Positions 722 through 37,595 are shown, counted from the first letter of the stretch. The stretch: 64,000 nt of DNA from an uncultured bacterium (GCA_964537715.1 CAZIAH010000004.1:7587-71586), one strand, 5' to 3'. Notes: generated by a model not told the origin, from the letters alone. A program made the numbers and translations.

Positions 722-3283
722 ATGGCACTGCGAACCTACATTCAGAAATCCATCAAAAACCGATGGAAATTCTTCTTCAACCTCTTTTTAAGTCTGTGGA
801 TTTCCGGTTCGGCTGTCGGTGGCATTACCGGAAAACTGTACGGTACCGTTACCGATGAAAAAACCGGGGCTGCCCTGATCGGAGCCAACATTCTGATTTT
901 GGGAACGCGTCAGGGTACGGCTTCCAACACGGATGGATCGTATCAGATGCAGAACATCCGAGCGGGGATCTACAACGTGCAGGTCCGTATGATCGGATAC
1001 CAGACGGTCACGTTTAAAGACATCCGCGTCCATCCTGATCGGAAAACTCGTCTAAATATTTCCATGAAAGAAAGTCCGTTGGAAATGGAAGCAGTCGAGA
1101 TTACCGTGGAAAAGCCGCTCATTCAGACAGACATCACGGGAACGACCCACGACATTGAAGCGAGAGAACTGGTTCAGCTGCCCATCGATCAGTTTCAGGA
1201 CGCCATCGGCCTGCAGCCAGGAGCGACCTACGACGGCCACATCCGGGGCGGCAAGAAACGGGAAGTCTTTTATCTCATCGACGGCCTGCCGGCACAGGAC
1301 TGGATCAAAGGGGGCTCCGGCCTGAATTTGCCGAAAAGCGCCATCGAGCAGATCAGCATCCAGACCGGCGGAATGACTGCGGAATACGGAAACTCGCTTT
1401 CCGGCATCGTCAACGTGGTCACCTCGACAGGAGGCGATGCGCCCTCTATTATGATTCGTGCGGACAAAGACGATCTCTTTGGGGGAACCCAGGTCAGCCA
1501 CGCCAACGAAGTAGAAATCGCTCTGTCCGGACCGATCAAAAAGGAGAAGCTTTACTACTTCACGGCCCACGAGGGATTGTGGACACAGACCCGCTGGTGG
1601 CAGGACATGAATCGCTTCTTCACTTCTCCGTTTCGACAAGATGTCAACGGAATCGCAAAAGTTGACTGGCTTTTACCGGCCAAGCGTCTCAGCATGCAGT
1701 GCATCTATTCACACCAGCGATGGCACGATTATGAATTCACCTGGCGATTCAACCTAAACGGCCTCCCACCGAGGAAACAAGTTTCCATCCGTCCCGCCAT
1801 TATCTGGACGCACACCCTTTCGAAAAAAACCTACTACACGTTCATTCTCGGATACCATGACCTGATTTCAAAAATCGGCTCTGGCGATGTGGAGAGTTTT
1901 ACACCGGAACCCTATACTTACGATTTTTATCTCCAATACGTGATCTCCGGTAAACGCTCCTGGTGGACCGAAACGCATCAGCAGGTCGGGCTGCTTCAGG
2001 CGCACCTGACAAGCCAGATTCATCCCTATCATCTGCTCAAGATCGGTGCCCAGCTCAACCTGACACGTGTGCACTCTGTTCTGCGGAAGATGGAACCGCA
2101 GATGACCTACTTTGGGAAGCCACTTGTTCACGAGCCGCTTCTCAACTACAGTACGGAATTTGATTACACGCCGAGATCGGGAAGCGTTTACATTCAGGAC
2201 AAATTCGAAGCCGGGAACGACCGGTCCGTGGTTCAGATCGGACTGCGCTTTGATTTTCTCGATCCTCGGGCACAGAGACCGGCCGTCGAACTTATTCCGA
2301 CCGAACCGGGAGCGTACGAAGAGACGATCACAGAATGGGTTCCGGCCAAGATACAGACCCATCTTTCACCGCGGATCGGATTTTCAATGCCCCTGTCAGA
2401 CCGTTCGTTTTTCTTCGTCAATTATGGGCACTATTTCCAGTACCCGCTGTTCGAGTACCTCTATTCGGGCCTGGACAATGTGCAGCTGAGAAACGGCGTG
2501 AATGTGCTTCGGGGCAATCCGGACCTGCTCGCCGAACAGACAGAAGCCTGGGAAATCAGCATGCGGATTCAGCTCATCGAAAACCTCGTCGGATCGATCA
2601 CCTATTTCAGGAAAGAGACGATGAATCAGATCGACACGAAAACTTTTGTAAGCGCGAACAGCCGGATCGCAGGCGACTACGGTTTTGCCGAGTTTGTGAA
2701 CAGTCCGCTGGGCGAATCGCATGGATTCGAAATCGTTCTCAAACGGGACAAAGGAAATGTTCTTACCGGTGAAATTTCATACACCTACATGGAAGCCAAA
2801 GGACTCAGCGAGACCGAGAATCAGGGGATCAACTACGCGCAGTGGGGATTTCCCATCTCCACGCACATGTACTACCTAAGCTGGGATCAGCGCCATACTC
2901 TGAAATGCGATCTCGGATTCAAACTGCCTTACGGCTTTCACGGAGACATGGTGTTCCAGAAGACCAGCGGTCGGCCCTACACCTATTTCCCGTCCAAAGA
3001 CGGTTTCACCCCGGACCTACCCGAAGCCCATTTTTTGCCAAACAACCGGAGAATGAAAGGCCACACCTTTCTCAATATGAAAATCCAAAAGGATTTTCAG
3101 TTGAAAAAAGCCTTTGCCGGAGATCCGTCCCGGATCACGATCTACTTTGACGGCCGCAATCTGCTGAACAACAAAAATGTGATCTGGATGGACAGTTCCG
3201 GCCGAATCGGCGGAGAACTGGGCGACCCCGCCGCATACGAAATCGGCAGGCGGATGAATTTCGGAGTGCAGCTTACTTACTAA
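722..3283 (+). CDS. TonB-dependent receptor-like outer membrane protein with N-terminal carboxypeptidase-regulatory-like (CarbopepD_reg) domain
   Basis: 853 aa with signal peptide. The N-terminal 'GKLYGTVTDEKTGAALIGANILILGT...DGSYQMQNIRAGIYNVQVRMIGYQTVTF' segment is typical of CarbopepD_reg. A plug-like region 'FYLIDGLPAQDW' and a C-terminal beta-barrel ending in an aromatic residue are present. Confidence 0.8.
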   Translation: MALRTYIQKSIKNRWKFFFNLFLSLWISGSAVGGITGKLYGTVTDEKTGAALIGANILILGTRQGTASNTDGSYQMQNIRAGIYNVQVRMIGYQTVTFKDIRVHPDRKTRLNISMKESPLEMEAVEITVEKPLIQTDITGTTHDIEARELVQLPIDQFQDAIGLQPGATYDGHIRGGKKREVFYLIDGLPAQDWIKGGSGLNLPKSAIEQISIQTGGMTAEYGNSLSGIVNVVTSTGGDAPSIMIRADKDDLFGGTQVSHANEVEIALSGPIKKEKLYYFTAHEGLWTQTRWWQDMNRFFTSPFRQDVNGIAKVDWLLPAKRLSMQCIYSHQRWHDYEFTWRFNLNGLPPRKQVSIRPAIIWTHTLSKKTYYTFILGYHDLISKIGSGDVESFTPEPYTYDFYLQYVISGKRSWWTETHQQVGLLQAHLTSQIHPYHLLKIGAQLNLTRVHSVLRKMEPQMTYFGKPLVHEPLLNYSTEFDYTPRSGSVYIQDKFEAGNDRSVVQIGLRFDFLDPRAQRPAVELIPTEPGAYEETITEWVPAKIQTHLSPRIGFSMPLSDRSFFFVNYGHYFQYPLFEYLYSGLDNVQLRNGVNVLRGNPDLLAEQTEAWEISMRIQLIENLVGSITYFRKETMNQIDTKTFVSANSRIAGDYGFAEFVNSPLGESHGFEIVLKRDKGNVLTGEISYTYMEAKGLSETENQGINYAQWGFPISTHMYYLSWDQRHTLKCDLGFKLPYGFHGDMVFQKTSGRPYTYFPSKDGFTPDLPEAHFLPNNRRMKGHTFLNMKIQKDFQLKKAFAGDPSRITIYFDGRNLLNNKNVIWMDSSGRIGGELGDPAAYEIGRRMNFGVQLTY

Positions 3284-4295: not shown

Positions 4296-4452
4296 GTGGT
4301 GCGACGATCCACCGATTATTGATGAGTGTCAAGTACAGGCTTCTTACCCACCACACATTGATGGATCACAGACGTATACTTTTAACTTTCCAATGAATCG
4401 GTCGGACTTTGGAGTTCGTAGGGTGGCTCGTAGACCCACCGATTATCGAAAG
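4296..4452. repeat. REP-like hairpin repeats (GGTGG-N9-CCACC followed by GATTATYGA) at 4296-4327 and 4411-4452, enclosing copy 1 of an ~80-100 bp direct repeat (4313-4412)
   Basis: Sequence 'ggtggtgcgacgatccaccgattattgatgag' (4296) is related to 'ggtggctcgtagacccaccgattatcgaaagg' (4421) and to 'ggtgggttgtagaaccactgattttcgatgg' (5023). Sequence 'gtacaggcttcttacccaccacacattgatggatcacagacg...aactttccaatgaatcggtcggactttgg' recurs at 6545-6642. Confidence 0.7.
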
Positions 4453-6544: not shown

Positions 6545-6642
6545 TTGCTGATGAATATCATAGTGTAGGCTTACTGCCACCACACATTGATAAATCATAG
6601 ACGCATTCTTTTTAACTTTCCAATGAATCGGTCGGATTTTCG
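6545..6642. repeat. copy 2 of the ~80-100 bp direct repeat that also occurs at 4313-4412
   Basis: '...tgatgaatatcatagtgtaggcttactgccaccacacattgataaatcatagacgcattctttttaactttccaatgaatcggtcggattttcg' is about 85% identical to copy 1. Confidence 0.75.
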
Positions 6643-6667
6643 AATCTCTCAACACAACAAGTAAAAA

Positions 6668-19834: not shown

Positions 19835-19931
19835 TGTTTCTACCCCCTTTTACAAATAGTAATCATAAGTATCCTGTTAAAATCATTCAGTTATTTAAGA
19901 ACCCGTACGTTTTTCAAATAATTCACAGAAA

Positions 19932-20125
19932 AAAGTGCTCTTTTCGCGGCATTCTCATCCCGCTCTAATAATTATAAACTATTATTGAAAAGGCGGGATC
20001 GTTGGCCGCATGTTCTTTGTCTTCAATACCTTAAAATTTCAATCACTTGATCCCGCAAAAGCGGGGCGCTATCCCGATTTCAAATATTATATTATTGATT
20101 GATTCGGGATGGCAACTCAAAATAA
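19932..20125. repeat. ~190-bp structured intergenic repeat, copy A (second copy at 24523-24715)
   Basis: Contains the hairpins ATCCCGC...GCGGGAT, CCCGC-AAAA-GCGGG and ATCCCGA...TCGGGAT. About 80-85% identical to copy B, in the same orientation. Confidence 0.75.
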
Positions 20126-20226
20126 GAATGAACAATGAATATGTATACTGTTAAAACCTTGCAAATTTAATTATTCTAATATCTGGTATTAATGAATTAA
20201 AAATAAACTGATAAAAAATTGATCCA

Positions 20227-24438: not shown

Positions 24439-24522
24439 TACCCCTGAATCATGAGTGTCCAGTTAAATCAATCATTTATTACTTTGTAAACATTTTATGC
24501 TATACTCAAATGAAATTCTGTT

Positions 24523-24715
24523 TTTTTCGCGGCATTCGAATCCCGCCTCAATAATGATAAAATATAATTGAAATAGCAGGATTGTCAGCCGCATGTTTTT
24601 TGTCTTCAATAATCTAAATATTTCAATAACTTGATCCCGCGAAAGCGGGGCGCCATCCCGAGCCAATCGATAATATAGTATTTAGAATCGGGATGGCAAG
24701 TCAATTCTAAAATCG
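24523..24715. repeat. ~190-bp structured intergenic repeat, copy B
   Basis: See copy A. Lies between the gpmI start and the trmO-like stop. Confidence 0.75.
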
Positions 24716-25582: not shown

Positions 25583-26659
25583 TCAGATCTCAATTAACTG
25601 ATATTCAGATTGACCCAACCCAATTGATTCTCCGTGCCGGATTTGAATCCGCGCGTCCAATTTGGGATAACTCATGTCCGTGAGCATCAGGTTTTTACGA
25701 TTGTTTTTCCGAATAAGATCCAGGCTGGCCGCATCGATGGCCACCGGATCTTTGCTCGCCAAGATACCGATGTCCGGCATGAGCGGTCTTTGATTCGTAT
25801 CAAAACAATCGCAGTCTTTGGTGATCGAAGTCAGAAAATTGAAACACCCAAATTTCTCCGGTTTTTGCGAGACGACACCGAGGGCATGTTCGGCAATCCG
25901 CTTCTGTAGTTCCGTTGAATTCACATTCCAGTCGTGCTTGACCGCATCGAAACGGCAAACCGCAATACACTCACCGCAGCCGATACATTTTTGATCGTCA
26001 ATCACAGCCGTTTTATTGTCCATGGAAATAGCGTCCGCAGGACACCACCGGATGCAGACGCCACAGCCCGTACAATATTGTTCGGAAATATTCGGATTCA
26101 TGCCGGCATGCTGCCTGAGTTTTCCCTTGCGGCTGGCAAATCCCATTCCCAGATTCTTGATGGTTCCGCCGAGTCCTGTGCTCAGATGTCCCGTCACATG
26201 GGTCATGGCAACAATCGCATTGGATTCCAGCGCGATTTTCGCCAGCGAGACCTGATTAAAAAGTTTCCCATGAATGGATACCTCACCTTCCCCGCTTCCC
26301 AAAAGCCCGTCGGCAATCACAACCGGTGCACCCGTATTCTCAATCGTAAAGCCATGCGCCTGCGCCAGATGCAGATGCGTCACCGCATCGTTTCGCTCGC
26401 TCCGGTAAAGCACATTGGTATCCGTGAGAAACGGCTTTCCCTTGTTCTTTTTGATGGCCTCGACCACCGGCCGCACGAACCCCGGAGCAATGTGTGTCGT
26501 ATTCCCCTTTTCTCCGAAATGGATCTTGATCGCCACCAGATCGTTTTCGCCCACACAATCCCCGATCCCGGCGCTTTCGAAAAGGGATTTGATTTTACTG
26601 ACAACGACCTGAGAGCTGTCTTTGTTTTTTACCCTCACAAAATAAACATCCGAACCCAA
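25583..26659 (-). CDS. DUF362-family iron-sulfur protein with 2x[4Fe-4S] ferredoxin insert
   Basis: N-terminus typical of DUF362 (VYFVRVKN...VAIKIHFGEKGNTTHI...RPVVEAIKK) and 'CTGCGVCIRWCPADAI...CIGCGECIAVC' cysteine motifs. Confidence 0.7.
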   Translation of the reverse strand: MGSDVYFVRVKNKDSSQVVVSKIKSLFESAGIGDCVGENDLVAIKIHFGEKGNTTHIAPGFVRPVVEAIKKNKGKPFLTDTNVLYRSERNDAVTHLHLAQAHGFTIENTGAPVVIADGLLGSGEGEVSIHGKLFNQVSLAKIALESNAIVAMTHVTGHLSTGLGGTIKNLGMGFASRKGKLRQHAGMNPNISEQYCTGCGVCIRWCPADAISMDNKTAVIDDQKCIGCGECIAVCRFDAVKHDWNVNSTELQKRIAEHALGVVSQKPEKFGCFNFLTSITKDCDCFDTNQRPLMPDIGILASKDPVAIDAASLDLIRKNNRKNLMLTDMSYPKLDARIQIRHGESIGLGQSEYQLIEI

Positions 26660-26722
26660 ACAACCTCCGGAGAAATTGGATGACTCATTCCCATAAAACT
26701 GCTTATTTTTTCAGCTATTAAT

Positions 26723-26804
26723 GTATTAATAAATCGGCACAAATGCAACATCCGCCGAACTGTGGATGATGAAATTTTATGGTAGGAGAATAAAATAGAT
26801 TATG
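26723..26804. repeat. intergenic modular repeat, Y-module copy 1 (tattaataaatcggcacaaatgcaacatccgccgaactgtggatgatgaaattttatgg...)
   Basis: About 88% identical to 28709-28784. Contains the hairpin CATCC-N10-GGATG. Confidence 0.75.
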
Positions 26805-26838
26805 GTCATTCCAAGGTTCTACTCTGGAACGGACTATA
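26803..26838. repeat. 35-bp direct repeat W1 (tcattccaaggttctactctggaacggactata), partner at 27887-27924
   Basis: 33 of 35 positions identical between the copies. The two copies bracket the Fib_succ_major gene. Confidence 0.75.
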
Positions 26839-26856
26839 TTTTTATATGCCCGCGTT

Positions 26857-27849
26857 TTAATCACGAACAAGACGGACAGAAAAGCCAAAATATTTTGTGT
26901 AATAGTTACGACCCAATGTTGCACTTTCGGAAGATAATACTCTATACCAAGCTTCTTCATTCAGGTACTCAGTAGATGACCAGAAATTGGTACAGCTTCC
27001 TAAAAAGCTAAAGTACATAAAATAGCGACCTCCGCCAGGAAGTGCTGTGAATCCGCTTTCGTTTGTAGCCCCAAAGTTTGGCTGTTGCCAATGAATAAAT
27101 CCTGCTTCCTTTAATTTACCTCCTTCTTTAAACCCTCGTGATCCTATATAATCTAATTCTGTCGGACTTATACCCAAATATATTTCTAACTCTTTCCATT
27201 CATCATCATTTGGAACATGCCAGCCTTCAGGTGTTAATCCTCGTGAATCATCCACTGTATACCAGTTATACAAAAAACCGTAAGTGTCAGCATTGCTCTC
27301 TTCATTATTAAAAGCACAATAAGCACCGGTTGTTAGTCCAGACCATAAAGTGCTATCTATTACATTAGGTATTGGGTCACCATTTCGGTAATGTGTCACT
27401 TTGAGATTTTCGGCTGTCCACCATTGCTCACCGATTTTGATCGTTTTATATATATTGCCGTCTATGTCACTTACCGATCCTGTTTCAAATGATTTAATTT
27501 GAAAAGACCAAATTTCAGACCAAATACTCCAATTCCCCTGATTGTCTCCTGCACGTACACGCCAGTAATACACTCCGAGATTTAATGTACCTGTGGTACA
27601 TTCAGTACTTTGTACCAGTATAACACTAAATTCTGGATTGATAAAATCGTTTGAATCATCCACAACTACTTCATACTTATTAGCATCTTCAACATCAATC
27701 CAACGTAGCGTCGGCGTAATTATAGCTGTTACTTCCTCATTTGTCGGACGGTCCAATGTTGGTCGTTCTAGATTATTTTCAGGTTCTGTACTTTTTTTAA
27801 CACAACTGATAGAAATAGTCAGAAGAAGAAATATGTACCACTTTTTCAT
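26857..27849 (-). CDS. Fibrobacter succinogenes major paralogous domain (Fib_succ_major/TIGR02145-like) lipoprotein
   Basis: Lipoprotein signal MKKWYIFLLLTISISC, followed by 'GEQWWTAENLKVTHYRNGDPIP...WSGLTTGAYCAFNN...YGFLYNWY...PEGWHVPNDDEWKELE...GFTALPGGGRY...FWSS'. All of these are signature elements of that paralogous family. Confidence 0.8.
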   Translation of the reverse strand: MKKWYIFLLLTISISCVKKSTEPENNLERPTLDRPTNEEVTAIITPTLRWIDVEDANKYEVVVDDSNDFINPEFSVILVQSTECTTGTLNLGVYYWRVRAGDNQGNWSIWSEIWSFQIKSFETGSVSDIDGNIYKTIKIGEQWWTAENLKVTHYRNGDPIPNVIDSTLWSGLTTGAYCAFNNEESNADTYGFLYNWYTVDDSRGLTPEGWHVPNDDEWKELEIYLGISPTELDYIGSRGFKEGGKLKEAGFIHWQQPNFGATNESGFTALPGGGRYFMYFSFLGSCTNFWSSTEYLNEEAWYRVLSSESATLGRNYYTKYFGFSVRLVRD

Positions 27850-27886
27850 CGTAATTCCCTCCTATTACCTTATCAATGTTATCCTT

Positions 27887-27924
27887 GATCATTCCAAGGT
27901 TTTACCCTGGAACGGACTATAACG
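27887..27924. repeat. 35-bp direct repeat W2
   Basis: See W1. Confidence 0.75.
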
Positions 27925-28065
27925 GAGGATTGAACCTTCTTTTCGATCCCACAAAGGTCAGATCGAAATCTTTGCGTCCCGGTGAAGAACCACAAGACGG
28001 TCTGAGAGTATTCTAATAAAAGAAAAAACATGGAAGGCGTATTCATTACCAAACCAAGATTAAGA

Positions 28066-28620
28066 TTACCCCGATTTTGGCAGGCCTACCCATCTTGGGG
28101 TTTTGGCCATGTATCTTCGATAGGCATCGCCAAATTTTGTGGTGGTCGCACGTTCTTCGATAACCACTGAGAAGCGTGATATGACAGTCAGAATCAGTGA
28201 AAGCAGCAGGAAAAGCCATGAAGCCGAAGCAATGCCGGCCCCGACCATTGGCAACAATGTGCCCAAAACCAACGGATGCCTTGAGTAACGATACATCCCT
28301 GTAGTAAACGGCTCGCCAGGTTTTGTGGCGGCAATACTGAAGAGAGCAACAAAAGAGATGATCAATCCTATTAAATAAACAACAAGCCCGATAAAGAACC
28401 ACACCGTTCCCAGTCTAAGTGGCAGAAAAACAGAGTATATGATCATGGTAAAAAATACGATCATCATGAAAGTACTGATTTTCTTGACTTCCCTGACAGG
28501 TGTTATTCTTTTGCCAACATCCCTGGGCATTCGTCCTGACAGCATCATTAACAGGAACAGCAAAACGGTTAAAATCCAGGCATTCCATACCCCAATCTTA
28601 AAAATCGGCATGAGTGACAT
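28066..28620 (-). CDS. isoprenylcysteine carboxyl methyltransferase (ICMT)/PEMT-family membrane methyltransferase
   Basis: Multi-TM protein. The 'PGEPFTTGMYRYSRHPLVLG' segment matches the ICMT/PEMT 'G.Y...RHP.Y' motif. Has the C-terminal 'EE..L...FG..Y..Y' segment. Confidence 0.75.
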   Translation of the reverse strand: MSLMPIFKIGVWNAWILTVLLFLLMMLSGRMPRDVGKRITPVREVKKISTFMMIVFFTMIIYSVFLPLRLGTVWFFIGLVVYLIGLIISFVALFSIAATKPGEPFTTGMYRYSRHPLVLGTLLPMVGAGIASASWLFLLLSLILTVISRFSVVIEERATTTKFGDAYRRYMAKTPRWVGLPKSG

Positions 28621-28640
28621 AATGATTCACCTTCTTTTGA

Positions 28641-28784
28641 GCTGCCGGAGGTGTTTCTCACCTTCGGCTATTATTCGACAAGGAAAAAACTCCCCGCCAC
28701 GCAGGAATATATTAATAAATTGGCACAAAAGCAACATCCGCCGAACAGTGGATGAGGAAATTTTATGGCAGGAACAATATGATG
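28641..28784. repeat. intergenic modular repeat, Z-module + Y-module (copy 2 of each)
   Basis: Z part (gtgtttctcaccttcggctattattcgacaaggaaaaaactccccgccacgcaggaata) matches 35452-35530. Y part matches 26723-26804. Confidence 0.75.
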
Positions 28785-28825
28785 GATAAAGTTTTATTCT
28801 TGGGTTTCATGATGTTCAACTCTAC

Positions 28826-31800
28826 CTACTGACTATATTCCATAACATGATTAAAATACTCTATAAACTCAACCTCATTCAATTTATAGTTAAATATTTT
28901 TGCAATCAGATTTTTATAGTCATTATAATTACTTTCTGGTAATAAGACTTTAAGATTATCTAAGTATTCTTCTATTTTGATTTTGAATTCATTCACCAAT
29001 TCAGATAACCATTCTTTATCAATTTCATTTCCAGAACTTAGCCACCTTCGACATTCAATCAATTTCCATAATTCTAAAAATAATTTCATTAAATTAGTAG
29101 TAAGAATATTCGGTTTCATCTCTTTTAATTCCACTCCTTCTAGTGTTTCTAACATTTCTGCAGTTAATTCAATTGGAAGTGGTTGTTCTTCATCATCAAT
29201 TTTAATATTTTCTCCATCTATGATTTTTTTCATCTTTACTAGAAGTGCGTTGTTAATCCTTATTGCTCTCTCACATTTTTTATCATCTTCAACGAAAACA
29301 ATAATGATGAAATTGACATTTATTTCCGATAAATCAACTAAGCTATATATAATTTTAGGAAATTCATCAGCTAAACGAGAAAATTCAACTCCCGATATTC
29401 CAATTACTATCTTCTTTAATATTCCTTCCTCAATTATTTTTTTTGGCATTAATGTTTTAAAGGATGTTTCTTTTTCAAATTTTTTTAGAACAATATATAT
29501 TTTATCAAGCCGTTTAGAGAGTAATTCTTGCCACCATTTTTCAACTACTGTTTTTGCATTAGTAGTAGCAATTGCACTTTCTTGATTATTTATATAATAT
29601 GAAATAGTTTTAAAAGCACGGTCATACCAAATTACTTCTTCATTTTCCATTTCGTCAGGATGAAAATATTTAAAAGTACTCTCAGAAATAAATCTGAATG
29701 CCTGCTGCATTTTATACAGGTTATTCTTAGTATTTAATAAATTTATTATTGCCAGATTTTGATCTTTATTATTTTGGGGTATTATTACATTACTAATTTG
29801 ATGAACAAAATTCCGTAGTGAATCAGCCCATTCATTTATTTTACCACAATTCTTCGCAAATTTCGTTTCCTCTACTTGCACATCATTCGAATTTGGTAAA
29901 TCTTTACATGTTATGAGAGCTTTCGATAAAACTAAAATGTTCTCATTTATAAATTTGCTAATAGATTTTATTCTGCTATGATTTTTTTCTATTAGAGCTT
30001 CAAAAAGTCTATTACAATCTTTTATAAATTCAAGGGATTTCTTTCTTATATAGATCCACTGTTTCTGCCAATCATAAACTGATGATGATTCATACCTTGA
30101 CATTAAAACTTTAACCCAGATGCTATTTATCTGAGCGTGGAATAGTGGATCTATGTTTTGTTGTGGCATTCGCTTAATTGAAGTATTAAGAACATTTGAA
30201 AATAATTCTTTGCCAGGAAAAGGAGGGATTATAGCTTCAGTACAATATAATTTATAAAATGGTAAAAAAGCATAAATAGCGAATATTCTATTTACACTTT
30301 CATCATTTGCTTTTTCAATATTCTCATATAATAAATAGTTGATTTTGATATTATTATGATCTTCTTCAATATTCAGTGTATTGGTTTTACGTTTTAGCCA
30401 ACTAATAATTTCATCTTTATGTTTTTTCACTATCTTATAATACTCTTTTGGTTGATTGGAATGATATGCATATGCCAGTTTGCATGAATCTTTAATTTCT
30501 GAAAATTTTAAAGAATTTAGAATAATTCTTCTGGATATCTTATTAATTAAGGGGCAATGTAATTGAAATTTATCAAACCATTGGATTAAATGCCCCAAAC
30601 CTTCGCACTCAATATTAATTTCTTTCTTTTCTAACTGTGTCTGTAATGATCTTAAAAAAATAAAAATATCATAATCTTTTGGGTTATAACTTTGTATCTC
30701 ATTTAATTTCTGCAAAAGATATTTTGGATTCTGACTTTCAGGTACAATCCCAACTAACTTCTTTATAGTATTTAATTTTATCCAAGGACAGCTGTCAGAG
30801 GCGACTAATAACAGACCTCCATGTTCAAATACATCATCATATATTTCTCTATTACTTTCCCAATGTTTTATAACAGTACAAGAAAAAATACCTTCAATTG
30901 ATTTTACAAGTTCAAAATAAGATTTCTGAGCAAGAAAAATAGCAATATTCTCGTAAAAATACGTTTTCCCTGTATCTGTAATTAGTAATGGTGCTTTAAA
31001 ACAAAAATCATAAATATATTCTTTTTCAATCAATGGTAGCAAATTGATCAAAGAGTTTGCTACTGGAATATTTGAATGAAGAAGATCAGACAAATGAGAC
31101 GAGCGTACCGGGTGTAATCCTTCCACATAGACTTTATCCAATTTAATATAATATTCATTTTCCAAACTCTTTATAACTTCATTTCTATCAGAAATAACCC
31201 CAATATTTTTTTGAATGGTTTCAATTAAATTTTGACTAGATAATTTAATATTACATATATCCGCGAGGGTAACCATTCTTAAAATTTCAATTTTTGCCGC
31301 CCCATCTTCTTCCTCATTAAGATTTTTAATTTGTTTTGTGAGTCTTTCTTTGAGCATTTCGCCAAAGGTTAAAAGATAAATGAACTCAATTAATAATCCT
31401 TTCTCTTTTACTTTTTCCCAAGCAGATTGCCAATTATCAATCGATCTATGCAATTTCCTATTTTGCCTAAATTGGGTAAAAATGTCCTGAGCTTCCTTAC
31501 ATGACATATGGATATTTAGGCAACCTAAGCTAAGCCGAGATGCATCTCCACCATATCTGTACCAATCTTCTTCTCTAGAAGTAATCATAAACTTCACGGG
31601 TAGATTATAACATCTTTCGGCTAATATTGACCATTTAGAAACTGCTTGTGTTAAACCATCTACGACAATTATAGGACTTTCGCCTATATTTATTTTAGCA
31701 ACTATAAATGAAATAATAGCCCCAAGCTTATCTTCATCAGAACACCAATTCAATTCATATAAACTATATCCTGTTTCTAACAATTTTTTACCTACTTGCC

Positions 31801-32815
31801 AAACCAAAGTTGATTTACCTTGTCCACTTGAGGATTTTATAACAGTAATATCAAAATCTTTAAAATAATTTTCTATTTTTTCTTCCCAATTTATACGTTT
31901 TACTGGTAAACCTTTTGCGATATGAATTGGTCGTGCTGATTTCCCCTCGTAATAATCTTTTACATCTATAGTTACATCTTTATTGAATGATACTCTAGAA
32001 ATCCATTTATTTTGAATTGCAGGATTTATCACACCTTTTGCAATATCTTCCCGGACAGTCTCAATAACTGAATTTAAATCATCGAATCTAATCGTTTCAC
32101 GATCTCTTGACCATTTAAATATTGAATAAAATAATGCTCTTAAATATTGATGTTCATTTTCTACATTTAGCTGTAAATTTTCTATAAGATGTTTAATACA
32201 TTTATTCTCAATATCAGGTTCTGAGAGTTTCTCAAATTTTATAGCTGACAAAAATTTTTCTAAATCAAAATCATTCCAATTCCAAATTCTTGCTTTATCA
32301 GAAACTTTGAAATCTTCAATTTTTCTATGCCAATATTTTAAACTTTTTTCAGATATATCATATGTAGAAAGATCATGTAAATAGCCATCGGTAATATCCA
32401 TATTATGAACAAAGCGGAACTTTACATTGGTAATTTGTAAATAAACTTCAAGGAAATTTTGAAGAATCCCTTTACTCCAGAAAGTAAAAGAATCTAATTT
32501 ATTTTCTGAATATTTGACTTGTATAAACTCATATTCCTTAGAAGCATTTAGATGAATTTTGATTAAATCTATGTCTTCAATTCCTTCTAGACGAATTTTT
32601 CTTTCTTTTTTTGTAACATCCAGAAAATCTAGAGTTTTCCACATTGCATAGTTTAATTGAAATCCAATTCCTTTTAAATTTACAGATCCTCCAGTTCTCC
32701 TTTTTAGAAGCACTTCCACAGGATACAAATTTTGTTGATTATCATCCATATTCTTTTGAATATTTGAACTTGAAATCAACGATTTCTTTGATTCTTTTTT
32801 CTTTCTTTTCGACAT
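28826..32815 (-). CDS. large STAND-class P-loop NTPase (NB-ARC/NACHT-like) with N-terminal PD-(D/E)xK-like putative nuclease effector and ~900-aa alpha-helical C-terminal region; candidate antiphage defence protein (Avs/AVAST-like architecture)
   Basis: 1329 aa, very AT-rich (Lys/Asn/Ile/Glu-rich). Walker A 'SSSGQGKST', Walker B 'PIIVVDGL', 'VKFMITSRE' (hhhhTSR sensor motif), 'LSLGCLNIHMSCKEAQDIF' (RNBS-C-like L..L...EA..hF). N-terminal 'GIGFQLNYAMW...IRLEGIEDIDLI...EFIQVKYSE' resembles a D...(E/Q)xK restriction-endonuclease-like core. The C-terminus is long and helical with no catalytic motif. Confidence 0.6.
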   Translation of the reverse strand: MSKRKKKESKKSLISSSNIQKNMDDNQQNLYPVEVLLKRRTGGSVNLKGIGFQLNYAMWKTLDFLDVTKKERKIRLEGIEDIDLIKIHLNASKEYEFIQVKYSENKLDSFTFWSKGILQNFLEVYLQITNVKFRFVHNMDITDGYLHDLSTYDISEKSLKYWHRKIEDFKVSDKARIWNWNDFDLEKFLSAIKFEKLSEPDIENKCIKHLIENLQLNVENEHQYLRALFYSIFKWSRDRETIRFDDLNSVIETVREDIAKGVINPAIQNKWISRVSFNKDVTIDVKDYYEGKSARPIHIAKGLPVKRINWEEKIENYFKDFDITVIKSSSGQGKSTLVWQVGKKLLETGYSLYELNWCSDEDKLGAIISFIVAKINIGESPIIVVDGLTQAVSKWSILAERCYNLPVKFMITSREEDWYRYGGDASRLSLGCLNIHMSCKEAQDIFTQFRQNRKLHRSIDNWQSAWEKVKEKGLLIEFIYLLTFGEMLKERLTKQIKNLNEEEDGAAKIEILRMVTLADICNIKLSSQNLIETIQKNIGVISDRNEVIKSLENEYYIKLDKVYVEGLHPVRSSHLSDLLHSNIPVANSLINLLPLIEKEYIYDFCFKAPLLITDTGKTYFYENIAIFLAQKSYFELVKSIEGIFSCTVIKHWESNREIYDDVFEHGGLLLVASDSCPWIKLNTIKKLVGIVPESQNPKYLLQKLNEIQSYNPKDYDIFIFLRSLQTQLEKKEINIECEGLGHLIQWFDKFQLHCPLINKISRRIILNSLKFSEIKDSCKLAYAYHSNQPKEYYKIVKKHKDEIISWLKRKTNTLNIEEDHNNIKINYLLYENIEKANDESVNRIFAIYAFLPFYKLYCTEAIIPPFPGKELFSNVLNTSIKRMPQQNIDPLFHAQINSIWVKVLMSRYESSSVYDWQKQWIYIRKKSLEFIKDCNRLFEALIEKNHSRIKSISKFINENILVLSKALITCKDLPNSNDVQVEETKFAKNCGKINEWADSLRNFVHQISNVIIPQNNKDQNLAIINLLNTKNNLYKMQQAFRFISESTFKYFHPDEMENEEVIWYDRAFKTISYYINNQESAIATTNAKTVVEKWWQELLSKRLDKIYIVLKKFEKETSFKTLMPKKIIEEGILKKIVIGISGVEFSRLADEFPKIIYSLVDLSEINVNFIIIVFVEDDKKCERAIRINNALLVKMKKIIDGENIKIDDEEQPLPIELTAEMLETLEGVELKEMKPNILTTNLMKLFLELWKLIECRRWLSSGNEIDKEWLSELVNEFKIKIEEYLDNLKVLLPESNYNDYKNLIAKIFNYKLNEVEFIEYFNHVMEYSQ

Positions 32816-33017
32816 TATGAAAAATATCCGTCTCTTTCAGAAATAAAATTCCTAAAAGAAAGTAATTTGTTGGTATCAGAAAGGAGTAAGGACAACGGTG
32901 TAGCAGAAATATAAAGTAAAGATAAATCTAATTCAAGTGAAAAACTGTTGTTCGACTGCTTTGATTTCGTCAAAGTTCTGCCTTGGTGCGATCAAAATAC
33001 GATTCTTACCACTTACA

Positions 33018-33237
33018 AAATTATTTTTCACTCTTACAAAACGATTTTTCCCTCTTGCAGAATGATTTTTACCCCATGACGAACGATTTTACCCTGATGA
33101 AAAATGATTTTACCCCCATGAAAAATGATTTCACCCTGATGATATATGATTTCACCCTGATGATATATGATTTCACCCCGATGAAAACTCATTTTACCCT
33201 GATGACGAATGATTTCTTTCCGACGCGGAACGATTGA
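33018..33237. repeat. tandem array of ~10 imperfect 21-bp direct repeats (consensus ~ RAATGATTTYACCCYGATGAW)
   Basis: Read directly. Units are contiguous with no spacers. Lies ~175-420 bp upstream of the start of the STAND NTPase gene and just downstream of the oxidoreductase gene. It artefactually creates an 84-aa repetitive ORF. Confidence 0.85.
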
Positions 33238-33283
33238 TAAGCGAAATAATGGGCCAAAATCCTGAATCCGGGCGTTTCTGCGC

Positions 33284-34786
33284 TCATAGTATGGAAGTCA
33301 AAAAAGGCTGACCGCTCTGTTTGCACAGCAACTGGATAAGCTGCCGGCCGGAAAGTGCCGCCATCACCGTACCGGAAAACGGAACGGTCCACTGACCGAC
33401 CATATAGAAATCTGACAGCCCCGGCAAGCTCCGCAGCGAGGTTTGCTTCATCATATTCTCAGGCGTGACATACCAGCCATCCGGCGAACCCTGCCAGTTT
33501 CCGGTGTAGCGAACATAGGTCGCGGGCGTCGGCACATCCACTACCTCGATTTGAGACGCAAAGCCGGGCCAGCGCTTGTCCAGTTCGGCAATGGTGAAAT
33601 CGGCGATGCGCTTTTTTTCTTCCTCATATCTGTTGCGGTCTTTCGCCAATTCTTCCCAGTAATCGTAGCGGGTCGGATACCACACCTCGACCGCGGATTT
33701 GCCCGGAGGGGCCATGTTCGGATCAAAACAGTGATGAATCACAGACAACCACGGGTGTTCCTCGCCGGCGATGGTAATCGGATCTTTCAATCGGAAAATG
33801 GTGCTGTGCGGTTCTTGCGACAGATCTTTGTTGACGCCTATTGCCACATGAACGAGCGGCTTCACCGGAATCCAATTGTCGTACATGGTGCGTATTTCAT
33901 CGTTGAGGTAACGTCCGCCGAGAATGTCAAAGATCACCGTATGACCGTCGCCCGCCCAGACAACGGTATCGGCCCGATGTTCGGTTCCGTCTTCCAAACG
34001 GATACCGACAGCCTGGTCGTTTTCGATGATTACATCCTTGACCCGGCTTTTGTAACGAATCTCGCCGCCTAATTTCTGATAATAATCGGCCATGCGGAAA
34101 ATCACTTTTTGTGATCCGCCGAGAGGCACGCCGGCTTCAAGCACAGCCGACTTTGCGAACCCGGACAGAGCAACCATGGGGAATTGCAGCATGGGCCAGC
34201 CCGGCGAGTCGATGACGAACCTAACGGCTTCGCGCAAAAAAGGATCTTGAAAGCGCTGGGCGAATTCCTGGATCGTCTGCTTCCCATACTTGCGGAACGT
34301 GCCCAAAAGCGGCAATATCGCACCCATCATTTTCAGCTTGTCGAAAAGACTGGCCATCTCCGCTGGTTTGAGCGACATCCCGCCCATCATGTTCCTGCCT
34401 GTGAACAGGCGGACGAACTCTTTTGTAAGTTTGGCATCGGACGGAGACAGAGCGAGCATCTGCTCTTCCAAACGGCGGGGATCGGTACAAATGTGCAGGA
34501 TCTTTTCGCCGCTCTCGACCCGCGTACCTTCTGTATGATAGTAAAACTGTTGATCCTTCAGAACACCGAGTTCCTGCCACATGGTTTGCAACGGCCCGCG
34601 TTTTGAACCCATAAGCATATGCATGCTGATATCGAAGGTGTATCCCTTTCGCTTCCAGGCGGTGCACAGACCACCCGGGATGCTGTGCATTTCAAAGAGA
34701 GTTGTGTTGTAACCATTCATGCGGGCATAGCAACCGGTTGAAAGTCCCGCGATGCCGCCACCGACAATGATCATACTTTTTCCCAT
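33284..34786 (-). CDS. FAD-dependent oxidoreductase, phytoene desaturase (CrtI)/amine-oxidase family
   Basis: N-terminal dinucleotide-binding 'MIIVGGGIAGLSTGCYARMNGYNTTLFEMHSIPGG' (GxGxxG ... E). 500 aa with family-typical C-terminal FAD-binding 'YMVGQWTVPFSGTVMAALSGRQ'. Confidence 0.8.
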   Translation of the reverse strand: MGKSMIIVGGGIAGLSTGCYARMNGYNTTLFEMHSIPGGLCTAWKRKGYTFDISMHMLMGSKRGPLQTMWQELGVLKDQQFYYHTEGTRVESGEKILHICTDPRRLEEQMLALSPSDAKLTKEFVRLFTGRNMMGGMSLKPAEMASLFDKLKMMGAILPLLGTFRKYGKQTIQEFAQRFQDPFLREAVRFVIDSPGWPMLQFPMVALSGFAKSAVLEAGVPLGGSQKVIFRMADYYQKLGGEIRYKSRVKDVIIENDQAVGIRLEDGTEHRADTVVWAGDGHTVIFDILGGRYLNDEIRTMYDNWIPVKPLVHVAIGVNKDLSQEPHSTIFRLKDPITIAGEEHPWLSVIHHCFDPNMAPPGKSAVEVWYPTRYDYWEELAKDRNRYEEEKKRIADFTIAELDKRWPGFASQIEVVDVPTPATYVRYTGNWQGSPDGWYVTPENMMKQTSLRSLPGLSDFYMVGQWTVPFSGTVMAALSGRQLIQLLCKQSGQPFLTSIL

Positions 34787-34864
34787 ATTCTCTTTCCTTT
34801 TCCTGATAATTTATATGCGACGGAGAAACTTTATTCTACGTTCAACCCAACCCGCTACCCGCTA

Positions 34865-35131
34865 CTACACGTAATGAGTCCACATACGAATCACTTTAAT
34901 CGTTTTCTTTTCTTGAATGATTTGATAGATAATACGGTGCTGTATATTAATTCGGCGTGAATATGCACCTGTGAGATCACCGACAAGTTTCTCGTAGGGA
35001 GGAGGTGCTTGATAAGGATCTTCCTTTAATAATTCCAGGATTGCAAGTGGTTTTTCCCTTAATCCTGAATTGCTTAACTTTTTTGCGTCCTTTTGTGCCT
35101 GTTTTGTATATACGATTTTCCATTTCACCAA
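34865..35131 (-). CDS. yoeB: type II toxin YoeB/Txe (RelE superfamily)
   Basis: 88 aa. 'YSRRINIQHRIIYQI...IKVIRMWTHY' matches the YoeB C-terminal catalytic region. Overlaps the upstream antitoxin gene. Confidence 0.8.
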   Translation of the reverse strand: MVKWKIVYTKQAQKDAKKLSNSGLREKPLAILELLKEDPYQAPPPYEKLVGDLTGAYSRRINIQHRIIYQIIQEKKTIKVIRMWTHYV

Positions 35132-35382
35132 TCAAGCTCCTCGGAACATTCTTCAATGGGCGTTTTAAGACCCTCTTGAATGGATTCACGCATACCGGGA
35201 ATAGAGAGAAGAAAAAGCGTCTCCTGGATTGCAGACCAATCCTCTTCTGAAACTAAAACCACATTCGACCTTTTACCGGTAATTTGAATGGGTTCATGAC
35301 TTGTTGAAGCTTCGTCTATGAGTTTATATAATTGTGATCGAGCATTGGTTACAGTTATCGTTTTCATTGTTTTGCCTTTCAT
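35125..35382 (-). CDS. yefM: type II antitoxin YefM/Phd family
   Basis: 85 aa. 'ITVTNARSQLYKLIDEA...EPIQITGKRSNVVLVSEEDWSAIQETLFLLS' is the classic Phd/YefM fold sequence. Confidence 0.8.
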   Translation of the reverse strand: MKGKTMKTITVTNARSQLYKLIDEASTSHEPIQITGKRSNVVLVSEEDWSAIQETLFLLSIPGMRESIQEGLKTPIEECSEELDW

Positions 35383-35451
35383 ACATGAAACGTACGGAAT
35401 AAGGTACGTAACGATTATGCAAATGTCAATATCATTTAAGAATATTTTTTA

Positions 35452-35530
35452 AGCTGGTGGTGTTCCTCACCTTCAGCTATTATTCGGCGAGGAGAAGAAC
35501 TCCTCACCGAGCAGGAATACGTAATAAACA
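35452..35530. repeat. intergenic modular repeat, Z-module copy 3
   Basis: 'ggtggtgttcctcaccttcagctattattcggcgaggagaagaactcctcaccgagcaggaatacgtaataaa' matches 28641-28715. Lies 70 bp upstream of the yefM start. Confidence 0.75.
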
Positions 35531-35682
35531 AAAGCCTGCCGGATTGAATCCAGCAGGCTTGGCTTGAAATTAAGATGAAATTTAGGATCTATTTTAAAAG
35601 AGGAGTTAATCCGATTAGTCTTCGATCACTCGAATATTTCCCACATCTCCCAGTACCCGACCCACTCTGGAAAGAGTGGGAA

Positions 35683-36885
35683 TTACTTCAATCTGTTTAA
35701 CATCTCTACCGCGTTTTGATTATCCGGATTCAGTTCAAGCGATTTTTTATAATTCTGAATGGCCAATTCCCTGTCACCGTTGATCATGTAGGCCTCACCC
35801 AGACTGTCATACGTATTCGCAGATTCAGGATAAACCAGCACATTCAATTTGAACAATTCAATGGCTTCCTTGGTTTGACCGGATTGTAAATATTGATACC
35901 CCAGGTTATTCATGCGTGTTTCGCTGAAAGGCAGCCACGTTGGTTCACTCTTCCGTTTTTCATTAAATAATTTGACTGCTTCTGCAGCACCTTTATTATT
36001 TAATACCTGGAAAAACTCTGTACTATTCAGAAAAAGGATAACCTGTTCATTGAATGCATCCGGTTGTTCAAAAGGGACCAAATGCCCTGCATTGTTAATG
36101 ATCACTTTTTGCGCATTTGGAATCCCTGATTCAATCGCACCCGCATGGACAAAAACATCAGGAATATCAAATTCACCGACGACTATCAATGCAGGAACTT
36201 GAATTTCACTTAATGCGTCAAGAGCAGTGGGTTCGGGGCGCACCTCCAACTGGTTTTTTGCAAAATCGATATTCTGAGGAAATTTCTGCATCAGTGTCCA
36301 GAGTTTTTCTTTGATTTCTTTATTCTGAGGCGCAATTTCATAGGGATCTTCTTTGACAAAATATTCGAGGAGTTTATCAGGATTCGCATAGTCTGTTGCA
36401 GACAGACGTCCTCCCCTTGTTAAAAAATGATCCGAGTAGCTGAATCCTCCAACCACAGCGCCGACCAATATGATCTTCGATACTTTCTCGGGATATGCCA
36501 GTGTAAAATCAATGACAAGCCCACCACCTGCAGACATGCCGATTAGAATGGCTTTATCAATTTTAAGAAAGTTGAAAACCTGGTTTAGATCCTCAATATT
36601 GGAATAGGGGCTCTCAGGCTGCGGTGAACGTCCGTAACCCCGGCGGTCGTAACGGACAACGCGATATTTTTCAGAAAAAGTTGAAAATTGGTTGTCCCAA
36701 ATCGCTCCGTGTACCAAACCATCATGAATCAATACAATGGTCTCATCCCCCTGACCGGTTATTTCATAATAGAGTTTGCCGTCATCCACTTTGATATAAC
36801 CGGAATCGACAGCATCCCTTTGACCGGCGCTGATATGGATCATCAGCAATACGGACATGAAAATACCGAAGTATAATTTTTTCAT
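35683..36885 (-). CDS. secreted alpha/beta-hydrolase fused to C-terminal TPR repeats
   Basis: Signal peptide. 'IVLIHDGL', nucleophile elbow 'GMSAGG', 'NAGHLVPFEQP' (catalytic His). C-terminal TPR-like 'NTYDSLGEAYMINGDRELAIQNYKKSLELNPDNQNA'. Confidence 0.75.
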   Translation of the reverse strand: MKKLYFGIFMSVLLMIHISAGQRDAVDSGYIKVDDGKLYYEITGQGDETIVLIHDGLVHGAIWDNQFSTFSEKYRVVRYDRRGYGRSPQPESPYSNIEDLNQVFNFLKIDKAILIGMSAGGGLVIDFTLAYPEKVSKIILVGAVVGGFSYSDHFLTRGGRLSATDYANPDKLLEYFVKEDPYEIAPQNKEIKEKLWTLMQKFPQNIDFAKNQLEVRPEPTALDALSEIQVPALIVVGEFDIPDVFVHAGAIESGIPNAQKVIINNAGHLVPFEQPDAFNEQVILFLNSTEFFQVLNNKGAAEAVKLFNEKRKSEPTWLPFSETRMNNLGYQYLQSGQTKEAIELFKLNVLVYPESANTYDSLGEAYMINGDRELAIQNYKKSLELNPDNQNAVEMLNRLK

Positions 36886-36956
36886 TTGAAACCTCTTCTG
36901 ATCTGGCTGGTTTGCAATATGATCGGAAATGAATTTTGAGATTAAGATGATTGCGA

Positions 36957-37595
36957 TTATTCTTCGATCACCAGAACATGTTTCATATCTCCCATAACCC
37001 GGCCCCCACCGGAGAGATGCAGTTCGACATAATCATCATCCTTGTCCGCAATCACATCCCCTTTGACGACCGAATCGTCCCTGATTTCGATCCTCAGGGG
37101 CTTTTGCCGTTCGGAGGAATTTCTGTCCCGTTTGACAATCACATCTCCATAAACGATGGTACTGTCCAAAAGTGATATGGGACCGTTATAGGTCTCGACA
37201 TCCCTTTTCACGCGGGTCTTTTGCAGTTCAATCGGTCCATTGACCGTGGCGATCTCTTTTCTTACTTTCACACCGGAACCGCACGAGATGGAACCATTCA
37301 CGGCAAGCAGACTTCCCCTCACATACACATCCTCCGCCACACGGATGGAACCGTTCACGCTCTGCACCCCCTCAGTCTTTGAATGTTTACCCACCTCGAT
37401 CACCCCGTTCACGGTTCTGCAGGTACCGTGAACTTCACAATGCGATCCGACGAAGATATTCCCGTTGACAGTCATCACATCACCGTATATCTTTTCGCCG
37501 TCATCGATGTAAAGCGTTCTGTTGATGCTCATCTTACAATTCAAAAAAAAGAGAAAAAGAACAGACACAAACGCAATAATCCGAACGGGCTTCAT
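36957..37595 (-). CDS. DUF4097-like beta-helical repeat protein (putative adhesin/YvlB-like), secreted
   Basis: Signal peptide and iterated 'TVNGNI / SVNGSI / AVNGSI / TVNGPI / TYNGPI' beta-strand repeats. Confidence 0.55.
   Translation of the reverse strand: MKPVRIIAFVSVLFLFFLNCKMSINRTLYIDDGEKIYGDVMTVNGNIFVGSHCEVHGTCRTVNGVIEVGKHSKTEGVQSVNGSIRVAEDVYVRGSLLAVNGSISCGSGVKVRKEIATVNGPIELQKTRVKRDVETYNGPISLLDSTIVYGDVIVKRDRNSSERQKPLRIEIRDDSVVKGDVIADKDDDYVELHLSGGGRVMGDMKHVLVIEE

Follow-up and report, generated by a model that had tools for sequence, protein, structure and literature searches.

The locus described here lies in a window of 64,000 nucleotides (nt) from an uncultured bacterium (GCA_964537715.1, CAZIAH010000004.1:7587-71586); by the window we mean this whole stretch of DNA. 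The host is KSB1- or Calditrichota-like, as the named homologues of its DUF362 protein come from metagenome-assembled genomes (MAGs) of candidate division KSB1 and Calditrichota. The window is matched by contigs L001 and L015 of Logan run SRR14802572, and the DUF362 protein is also present, exactly, on a 79.6-kb contig at NCBI. All genes across 19-41 kb of the window are encoded on the minus strand. Between the DUF362 gene and a hydrolase-TPR gene, a series of accessory genes is punctuated by copies of four short intergenic modules, which we call W, Y, Z and V. We hold with moderate confidence that the segment at 26.7-35.6 kb is the form taken in one strain by a hypervariable hotspot for accessory and defence genes, running from the hydrolase-TPR terminator to the upstream region of DUF362, and that the modules form the scaffold through which its cassettes are exchanged. 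An earlier interpretation of this DNA made without database searches (the sequence-only reading) had described the modules Y and Z and the cargo. The modules W and V and the 64-nt remnant of a gene end are additions to it. The features are listed here in the order of the plus strand.

25583-26659, minus strand: DUF362 gene with a 4Fe-4S (Fer4) domain, assigned by Pfam; conserved right flank and first gene of the syntenic core block
26714-26798, minus strand: module Y1 (profile limits), containing CCATAAAATTTC, the hairpin CATCC-N10-GGATG and the string TTGCAT-N17-TACATT
26798-26840, minus strand: module W1, the imperfect palindrome TCCGTTCCAGAGTAGAACCTTGGAATGA; right edge of the variable region
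26857-27849, minus strand: Fib_succ_major lipoprotein gene (Pfam) with W2 and W1 on its two sides; GC content at third codon positions (GC3) 0.27
27882-27923, minus strand: module W2, the second W copy, 37 nt upstream of the Fib_succ start
28066-28620, minus strand: PEMT/ICMT-like membrane methyltransferase gene (Pfam); core-like GC content, GC3 0.50
28637-28710, minus strand: module Z1, with two hairpins, just upstream of the ribosome-binding site (RBS) of the ICMT-like gene
28703-28782, minus strand: module Y2 (profile limits), a duplicated copy of the region upstream of DUF362, joined to Z1
28826-32815, minus strand: STAND-like NTPase gene, 1329 aa; GC 0.28, GC3 0.20
32876-32943, minus strand: module V, upstream of the STAND gene, with the promoter-like string TTGAAT-N17-TATATT (site 32936-32908)
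32999-33216: array in which a 21-bp unit is repeated about ten times; it separates the CrtI-like gene from V
33284-34786, minus strand: FAD amine-oxidase/CrtI-like oxidoreductase gene (Pfam); core-like GC content, GC3 0.64
34865-35382, minus strand: yefM-yoeB toxin-antitoxin pair (Pfam YoeB and YefM); GC3 0.34-0.35
35451-35521, minus strand: module Z2, with two hairpins; it directly follows the hydrolase terminator and precedes the yefM promoter
35532-35560, minus strand: left anchor of the variable region, the hydrolase gene's intrinsic terminator, canonical in form
35612-35675, minus strand: 64-nt remnant of the 3' end of a 212-aa gene, 77% identical to 36954-37017 (the last ~20 codons)
35683-36885, minus strand: alpha/beta-hydrolase-TPR gene (Pfam); GC3 0.42

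The comparison rests on contigs from several related strains. L017 is ~94% identical to the window at the nucleotide level. L008, L003 and L012 share one identical sequence, with 91% amino-acid identity in DUF362 and ~85% nucleotide identity in the core; L003 (CAZTZL010000044.1, the reference MAG) is N-masked from position 3018, just past Y, and the unmasked sequence was taken from L008. L009, L024 and L025 belong to the same 90% protein cluster, L010, L016 and L026 form a lineage at 83%, and L013 and L021-L023 are relatives at 63% identity. The core block of DUF362, a small open reading frame (ORF), TrmO, gpmI, MlaEFD and M50 is syntenic in relatives at 91%, 83% and 63% identity. Upstream of the same DUF362 block, the window, L008, L017 and L025 differ in content; in the 63% relatives a TPR gene lies 43-48 nt upstream of DUF362 and the island is absent. 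The sequence-only reading had called this stretch an accessory island. That description holds: relatives at 85-94% identity carry different genes, distant ones carry none, and several of the cargo genes are foreign in composition. The joins of the window are reproduced in the independent assemblies L001, L015 and L017, and for this reason we can rule out an assembly artefact.

In gene orientation, L008 reads: a 197-aa ORF (cut), W', a 133-aa ORF, W, V, an FRG gene, Z, W, a higB-like gene with an HTH/Peptidase_M78 gene, W, Y and DUF362. Two of the encoded proteins match defence entries in PADLOC (FRG as PDC-S15, HTH-M78 as PD-Lambda-2_B); small lipoproteins also belong to the cargo of L008. None of the L008 cargo genes occurs in the window, and the modules are the sole similarities between the two islands. 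Unbroken homology begins at the 5' edge of W1 (26840) and continues across Y1, which is 97% identical, into the core, and W1 therefore marks the right edge of the variable region; beyond it the cargo is wholly different. The other modules of the window resemble their L008 counterparts to the following extent.

Z2: 91% identical
Z1: 80% identical
Y2: 94% identical
W2: 80-82% identical (to two W copies)
V: 82.5% identical over 63 nt (E 2.5e-12)

The order V..Z..W..W-Y-DUF362 is common to the window and L008, while each slot between the modules is filled differently.

V to Z: the STAND gene (plus Y2) in the window; the FRG gene in L008
Z to W: the ICMT-like gene in the window; nothing in L008
W to W: the Fib_succ gene in the window; the higBA-like pair in L008

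Since the modules sit where homology between strains starts and stops, the recombination scars or junctions proposed in the sequence-only reading are a fair description of them. Its further proposal, that the island is delimited by the outermost repeat copies, finds no support: there is no matched pair, the right edge being W1 and the left edge the hydrolase terminator with Z2 or a point further left. The left flank, comprising the hydrolase gene and its terminator, is orthologous in L016 (83%), a contig that ends ~60 nt past the terminator; the left flank of the L008 lineage was not recovered. L017 retains the series ICMT, W, Fib_succ, W, Y, DUF362, with a 99% identical copy of the Fib_succ gene in the same context. 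Several relatives' contigs start at a module. Four samples break at W (L024 at the central TAGAAC, L017 at CCTGGAATG, L010 at CGGAAAGTG and L009 just after W), and L026 and L027 begin inside Y. Short-read assemblers behave in this way where co-existing strains diverge, and the breaks are thus indirect evidence that fits the modules being joints of variation. The modules would in turn account for the repeated breaking of contigs when this lineage is assembled from metagenomes.

The W module is 36-42 nt long and follows the consensus TCCGTTCCAG(A/G)GTA(G/A)AACCTTGGAATGA, an imperfect palindrome. The two copies in the window, which flank the Fib_succ gene, are 92-94% identical (E 3e-9). Their imperfect hairpin of 9-11 bp scores -3.4 (W1) and -3.5 (W2) as z-scores against shuffled sequences; across copies the score is -3.4 to -4.1 in three and weak in two. 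W has no U tract, and the hydrolase terminator of the same organism is canonical. These properties raise the question whether W is the site of a dedicated site-specific system, integron- or Xer/pdif-like, with its recombinase elsewhere in the genome and with Y, Z and V as passengers or promoters. W separates nearly every cargo unit of L008 at regular spacing and brackets Fib_succ in both the window and L017; all copies are direct and in gene orientation. Read as an imperfect palindrome of layout 11-6-11, it has a strongly conserved left and a variable right arm, as in hybrid recombination sites, and contig starts from four assemblies fall at W, three within it, clustered at its center, and one at its edge. 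The missing U tract sets W apart from the organism's canonical terminators, and the rAID-1 arrays of Bacteroidales (10.1101/471110) provide an FCB-group precedent for recombinase-linked arrays with repetitive intergenic sequences.

Several observations speak against a dedicated site. Pfam scans of the window, which covered its ~60 largest non-overlapping ORFs, detected no integrase, transposase or recombinase domain, and the gene calls of L008, L017 and L016 contain none either; neither the 64 kb nor the related loci thus yielded a tyrosine or serine recombinase, and the recombination proteins detected in the window are RuvABC alone. A scan of the window and of the L008 and L017 islands on both strands for attC-like sites (57-141 nt, RYYYAAC ... 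GTTRRRY cores, paired L boxes) returned no candidates; this was a crude pattern scan rather than a covariance model. W is shorter than any attC, contains no R''/R' cores of that type and reads GTTCCAG...CTGGAAC, the reverse of the attC core arrangement. Some 8 kb of the window island, from yefM to STAND, is free of W, the Z-Y junction of L025 contains none, and the repeats on either side of the other insertions (Y, Z, a gene end) are unrelated, so that several sites would be needed. We regard a dedicated W site as unlikely, although it and a homology-driven process are not mutually exclusive. The more specific proposal, that an undescribed cassette-exchange system of KSB1/FCB-group bacteria has W (TCCGTTCCAGG-GTAGAA-CCNTGGAATGA) as its core site, seems to us slightly less probable still. 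Such a system would be integron-like with a different site and a recombinase away from the array, and genes for defence, toxin-antitoxin pairs and surface proteins would be gathered by it directly before a chromosomal promoter of fixed position.

The origin of module Y can be read from its position. Its two copies (26720-26787 and 28706-28773) are 91% identical over 68 nt (BLAST, 92% over 64 nt, E 2.5e-20), and both carry the hairpin CATCC-N10-GGATG and a promoter-like string TTGC(A/T)T-N17-TA(C/T)ATT, in agreement with the sequence-only reading. Y1 lies 61 nt from the DUF362 start, and the same segment stands at the same position in L008, L009, L017, L024, L025, L010 and L026; in the 83% lineage the blocks CCATAAAATTTC, TGTTGCATTT and TTATTAATACATT are retained and a 22-nt hairpin block is replaced. 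This positional conservation shows that Y is the resident upstream region of DUF362 and not an inserted element, and a promoter-like role there is plausible. A role of Y as an RNA structure was considered and rejected: its fold is no better than that of shuffled sequences (z-scores -0.5 and -1.9).

The second copy, Y2, abuts Z1 and overlaps it by a few bases at 28703-28710, which bears out the fused element noticed earlier. L017 suggests how this fusion arose. Upstream of its ICMT-like gene this strain carries the 3' half of W, 75 nt, a Y copy together with the first 16 nt of the DUF362 leader, 115 nt, and Z. From this arrangement we infer that the duplicated unit was a contiguous W-Y-leader block, and the Y2-Z1 fusion of the window appears to be a deletion derivative of W-Y-leader-(115 nt)-Z. 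Y2 and the upstream Y of L017 both read TTGCTT and therefore go back to the same duplication. The junction in the window lies at TTAATAYATT, beside the ATATATT that precedes Z. In L025, Z is followed directly by Y-DUF362, and a second Z stands before an ICMT start. Ten Y copies differ from each other at 0-7 of 63 nt, too few differences to name the donor lineage of Y2.

The two Z modules (28637-28710 and 35451-35521) share a core of 28 nt at 93% identity (BLAST, E 4.7e-6) and are ~80% identical over ~75 nt, so that this pair of repeats, too, is real; like the others, it stands well beyond chance. Z1 lies ~17-21 nt from the start of the ICMT/PEMT-like gene and Z2 ~69 nt from that of yefM; together with Y1, these distances match the 20-70 bp upstream of minus-strand starts given in the sequence-only reading. 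The fold of Z yields z-scores of -2.5 for Z1 and -5.8 for Z2, and in helix 1 one-sided changes preserve pairing through G-U on the gene-sense strand. Z stands directly before the RBS of the ICMT-like gene in the window, L017 and L025. In L008 it follows the FRG stop codon and precedes W, and Z2 lies upstream of the promoter and operator that belong to yefM itself; Z is therefore not consistently a 5' untranslated region (UTR). One further feature concerns hairpin 2, the arms of which contain a Shine-Dalgarno (SD)-like GAAGGTG and the 16S anti-SD sequence CACCTCC (CACCTCG in L017 and in one L025 copy). The RBS of the ICMT-like gene (AAGAAGGTGA in the window and L017, AAGAAAGTGA in L025) follows 12-25 nt downstream and could pair with the same Z arm, within 28621-28665 of the window, 340-392 of L017 and 355-402 of L025. 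Such a pairing might act as a translational switch.

Module V is recognizable only by comparison with a relative. In L008 it precedes the unrelated FRG gene, and the homology stops just downstream of the TATATT hexamer, which resembles a -10 element. V thus seems to be re-used as a promoter-like segment before STAND in the window and before FRG in L008, much as Y would be before DUF362 and before the ICMT-like gene. Of the portable promoter or UTR element that the sequence-only reading had considered, the promoter part is consistent with these two modules, and the UTR part does not hold for every copy of Z. None of the four modules has a match in Rfam 15, where a scan of the window at gathering thresholds gave only a tRNA-Leu and an E-value scan of 26.5-35.8 kb only a chance match to mir-84 inside the STAND gene.

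These signals could also mean that the repeats are kept alike by selection, as operators, promoters or RNA elements of one regulon whose position at cassette borders is incidental. The W palindrome and the Y hairpin would then bind a common regulator, and Z would serve as a translational or stability leader. Y1 (97%), Y2 (94%) and Z2 (91%) are indeed closer to L008 than the core (~85%), the homology of V and Y ends at about the predicted transcription start, and helix 1 of Z keeps its G-U pairing on the sense strand. The anti-SD-like CACCTC(C/G) arm of Z1, L017 and L025, with its choice between the upstream GAAGGTG and the real ICMT RBS, would fit as well. A regulon leaves unexplained, however, why spacers and non-functional positions are alike, why W, Y and leader were duplicated contiguously in L017 and why a gene 3' end was duplicated; the fold of Y is not significant, and the right arm of W is poorly conserved, unlike a dimeric operator. 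As a full explanation, including the assignment of regulator and leader functions, common regulation is possible but doubtful, and it is compatible with the exchange of cassettes rather than exclusive of it.

If the modules were autonomous or non-autonomous mobile repeats of the kinds known as miniature inverted-repeat transposable elements (MITEs), repetitive extragenic palindromes (REPs) or bacterial interspersed mosaic elements (BIMEs), which insert between genes and carry promoters by chance, copies would be expected elsewhere. Profiles of W, Y, Z and V (nhmmer) recovered every known copy and no further one, whether in the ~55 kb of the window outside the hotspot or in the core DNA of relatives, from which ~60 kb in all were covered. 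Within the ~100 kb compared, the modules occur at the hotspot alone and are not spread uniformly upstream of core genes, a pattern that would have pointed to a common promoter architecture. In a scan of 185,579 species representatives, the sole related genome (L003) has the Y core a single time; the other five of six hits are chance matches in unrelated coding DNA (three were checked). A metagenome scan with the Z core gave the L008 contig and one chance match in high-GC coding DNA, although rarity of Z cannot be claimed strongly, because the scanned collection missed L017, a perfect match to the Z core. A scan of viral contigs gave no hit to the Z core, and the three hits to the W core all lack the right arm and are due to chance.

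In favor of mobile repeats, the lineage does have an intergenic inserting repeat (R, ~200 nt), a REP-like ATCGCAACGACA hairpin array occupies the DUF362 leader of L026 with a related copy between W and Y in L017, and the combinations W-Y, Y-Z, Z-W and Z-Y are mosaic as in BIMEs. Beyond the confinement to one locus, the conserved position of Y1 as the upstream region of DUF362 speaks against them, and neither terminal inverted repeats nor target-site duplications were apparent at module ends in the sequences read, in which no systematic search was made. The MITE-like interpretation offered in the sequence-only reading therefore finds no support, and mobile repeats of any of these kinds strike us as the least probable of the alternatives.

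We return to the exchange of cassettes by recombination through short shared intergenic modules, a process that would leave diverged direct repeats and would resemble a minimal mobile element; to this interpretation we assign about an even chance. It draws together results that the comparison shows, namely the repeats and their restriction to the hotspot, the replaced cargo, the collinear order of modules, the orthology of Y1 and the lack of mobility genes and attC-like sites in the DNA scanned; the recombination route and a promoter or RNA-structure function of the modules are inferred. W, Y, Z and V would be local copies of the hotspot's own intergenic segments, persisting as a collinear scaffold while genes are swapped. 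DNA from a related strain would enter and be exchanged via the short shared modules and the conserved flanking genes, and single-crossover (Campbell-type) or unequal events would leave diverged direct repeats around each inserted block. Candidate routes include Campbell-type integration of circularized DNA from a related strain, unequal crossing-over, and homology-facilitated illegitimate recombination anchored on the DUF362 side.

The blocks that may have arisen in this way are W-Fib-W, Y-[Z-ICMT-W-Fib-W]-Y, Z-[yefM..STAND-Y]-Z and gene-end-[hydrolase]-gene-end, and the divergence between the two copies flanking a block would mirror that between donor and recipient. All follow a pattern H-cargo-H, in which H stands for a direct repeat (36-90 nt, 77-92% identity) and can be a hairpin, a promoter-like region, a structured element or a gene end. 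Because these repeats are of unrelated kinds, a homology-driven process fits better than a single recognition site. Retained Y and V would offer incoming genes promoter-like signals, and W and Z hairpin-forming sequence; insertions that keep the modules would for this reason be favored.

A number of points weigh against this interpretation. No recombination event was directly observed, and RecA-dependent exchange is poorly served by modules of 36-85 nt at 80-92% identity. The left arm of W, TCCGTTCCAGG, is far better conserved than the right arm, and W recurs four times in 4 kb of L008; in both respects it looks like a recognized site. The statement that the modules are confined to the hotspot rests on ~100 kb of DNA from three or four related lineages on short contigs. 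As for function, the Y string TTGCAT-N17-TACATT agrees with the E. coli promoter consensus at 7-8 of 12 positions, which is weak by that standard. In helix 2 of Z, covariation is thin, with one compensatory change (C-G to U-A) and several disruptive changes in the outer part.

Most hotspots are described by their conserved flanks only, and how genes are swapped inside them is usually unknown. Here, two promoter-like and two hairpin-forming segments stay in order while the intervening genes change. If our interpretation is true, regulatory and structural modules can serve as recombination joints of a cassette-like hotspot that works without an integrase, which bears on how defence islands are built in uncultured FCB-group bacteria. 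If, instead, W is a true recombinase site, the locus would represent a new cassette system.

For the cargo of the window, Pfam confirms the gene list of the sequence-only reading (Fib_succ_major, PEMT/ICMT-like, nSTAND, CrtI-like, YoeB and YefM), with the qualification that the STAND protein matches nSTAND_NTPase5 (E 2.3e-7) at 31.2 bits, below the curated cut-off of 34; PADLOC gave no match for this gene. The core genes flanking the island have GC3 values of 0.52-0.63 (M50, 0.45). Against this background the base composition of STAND, Fib_succ, yefM/yoeB and the hydrolase gene is foreign, whereas the ICMT-like and CrtI-like genes look native by GC3. The yefM-yoeB pair has its own string TTGACA-N17-TACCTT, which overlaps an operator-like palindrome ACGTAC-N8-GTACGT (~35390-35430, minus strand). 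This palindrome resembles the GTAC-containing operators of YefM-YoeB systems. The unit of the 21-bp array reads GATTTCACCCTGATGAAAAAT on the plus strand; of the two contigs from the source sample, L015 ends within the array and L001 begins just past it, and L008 has no counterpart at the equivalent position. Homologues of the hydrolase-TPR protein at 70-83% identity occur in MAGs labelled Gemmatimonadota, Calditrichota, Ignavibacteriaceae, KSB1 and Marinimicrobia, and the gene is therefore itself prone to horizontal transfer. With the remnant of the 212-aa gene end downstream of it, the hydrolase-TPR gene is also flanked by direct repeats. Together with its GC3 of 0.42, the duplicated gene end and the cross-phylum homologues indicate that the island may extend left to about 36950.

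Other repeats were seen in the window and its relatives. The repeat R is a structured intergenic element of ~200-230 nt at 19901-20129 and 24490-24715 (minus strand, copies 77-84% identical), standing once before the M50 peptidase gene and once before gpmI. Its hairpins include ATCCCGA..TCGGGAT and CCCGC-N4-GCGGGATC, the latter being confined, within the window, to these two copies. At the TrmO-gpmI site, L008, L010, L013 and L017 all lack R, and so do L008 and L013 at the MlaD-M50 site. This distribution gives R the look of a recent insertion, comparable to a MITE or to a small-RNA gene. A direct repeat of ~100 nt at 4320-4422 and 6550-6650 (plus strand, core 86-94% identical) includes the start of a SnoaL-like gene and flanks 2.2 kb with SnoaL_3 and Por_Secre_tail genes, the same repeat-cargo-repeat layout as in the island. 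In L026, tandem REP-like units (GAGATTGC..hairpin..ATCGCAACGACA) at 100-330 lie between the promoter-like region of Y and the DUF362 start. One related unit occurs at 20-95 of L017, between W and Y; a search of the window for this motif found none.

Known systems share some of these traits. The BIME/REP and pneumococcal BOX families occur in tens to hundreds of copies dispersed over a genome. Like them, the modules are short, extragenic, in part palindromic and joined in several orders; here, however, all the copies observed belong to a single locus, and Y is native to the region upstream of a core gene. W is a short extragenic palindrome in the manner of a REP. High copy number and a REP-associated tyrosine transposase (RAYT) complete the definition of that family, and we found no W in the ~55 kb outside the island and no IS200/IS605-type gene among the window ORFs scanned. 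The pdif (Xer) modules of Acinetobacter plasmids are bounded by dif-like sites of ~28 bp with an 11-6-11 layout in inverted orientation, which flank modules that often carry toxin-antitoxin or resistance genes. W can be read in the same layout and likewise bounds gene modules, but its copies are direct rather than inverted and there are no Xer genes nearby. By eye, W bears no resemblance to the dif consensus.

Integrons, clusters of attC sites lacking integron-integrases (CALINs) and rAID-1 arrays (10.1101/471110) likewise combine co-oriented genes, a recurring short structured direct repeat and cargo rich in toxin-antitoxin and defence genes. All cargo of the window is co-oriented and W stands between most units of L008, yet 8 kb of the window island is without W. 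In contrast to these arrays, there is no adjacent integrase or XerD-like recombinase; W has 36-42 nt without R''/R' cores, several cassettes come with promoter-like modules of their own, and some junctions are made without W. With no adjacent recombinase and no attC found, the locus falls outside the definition of an integron.

The closest match is with the minimal mobile elements (MMEs) of Neisseria (Saunders & Snyder 2002, as summarised in PMC3787668), in which the exchange of variable genes between conserved flanks is attributed to homologous recombination, and with defence-island hotspots in general. The present locus has what defines an MME or integration hotspot, namely content that varies between conserved flanks among close relatives and in which no mobility genes were detected; in both cases differing genes, often defence-related or uncharacterised, are held between fixed core genes. 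In contrast to the MMEs as summarised there, homology at this locus also resides in the internal modules W, Y, Z and V, which are conserved in order, mark the borders of the gene slots and are left behind as diverged direct repeats.

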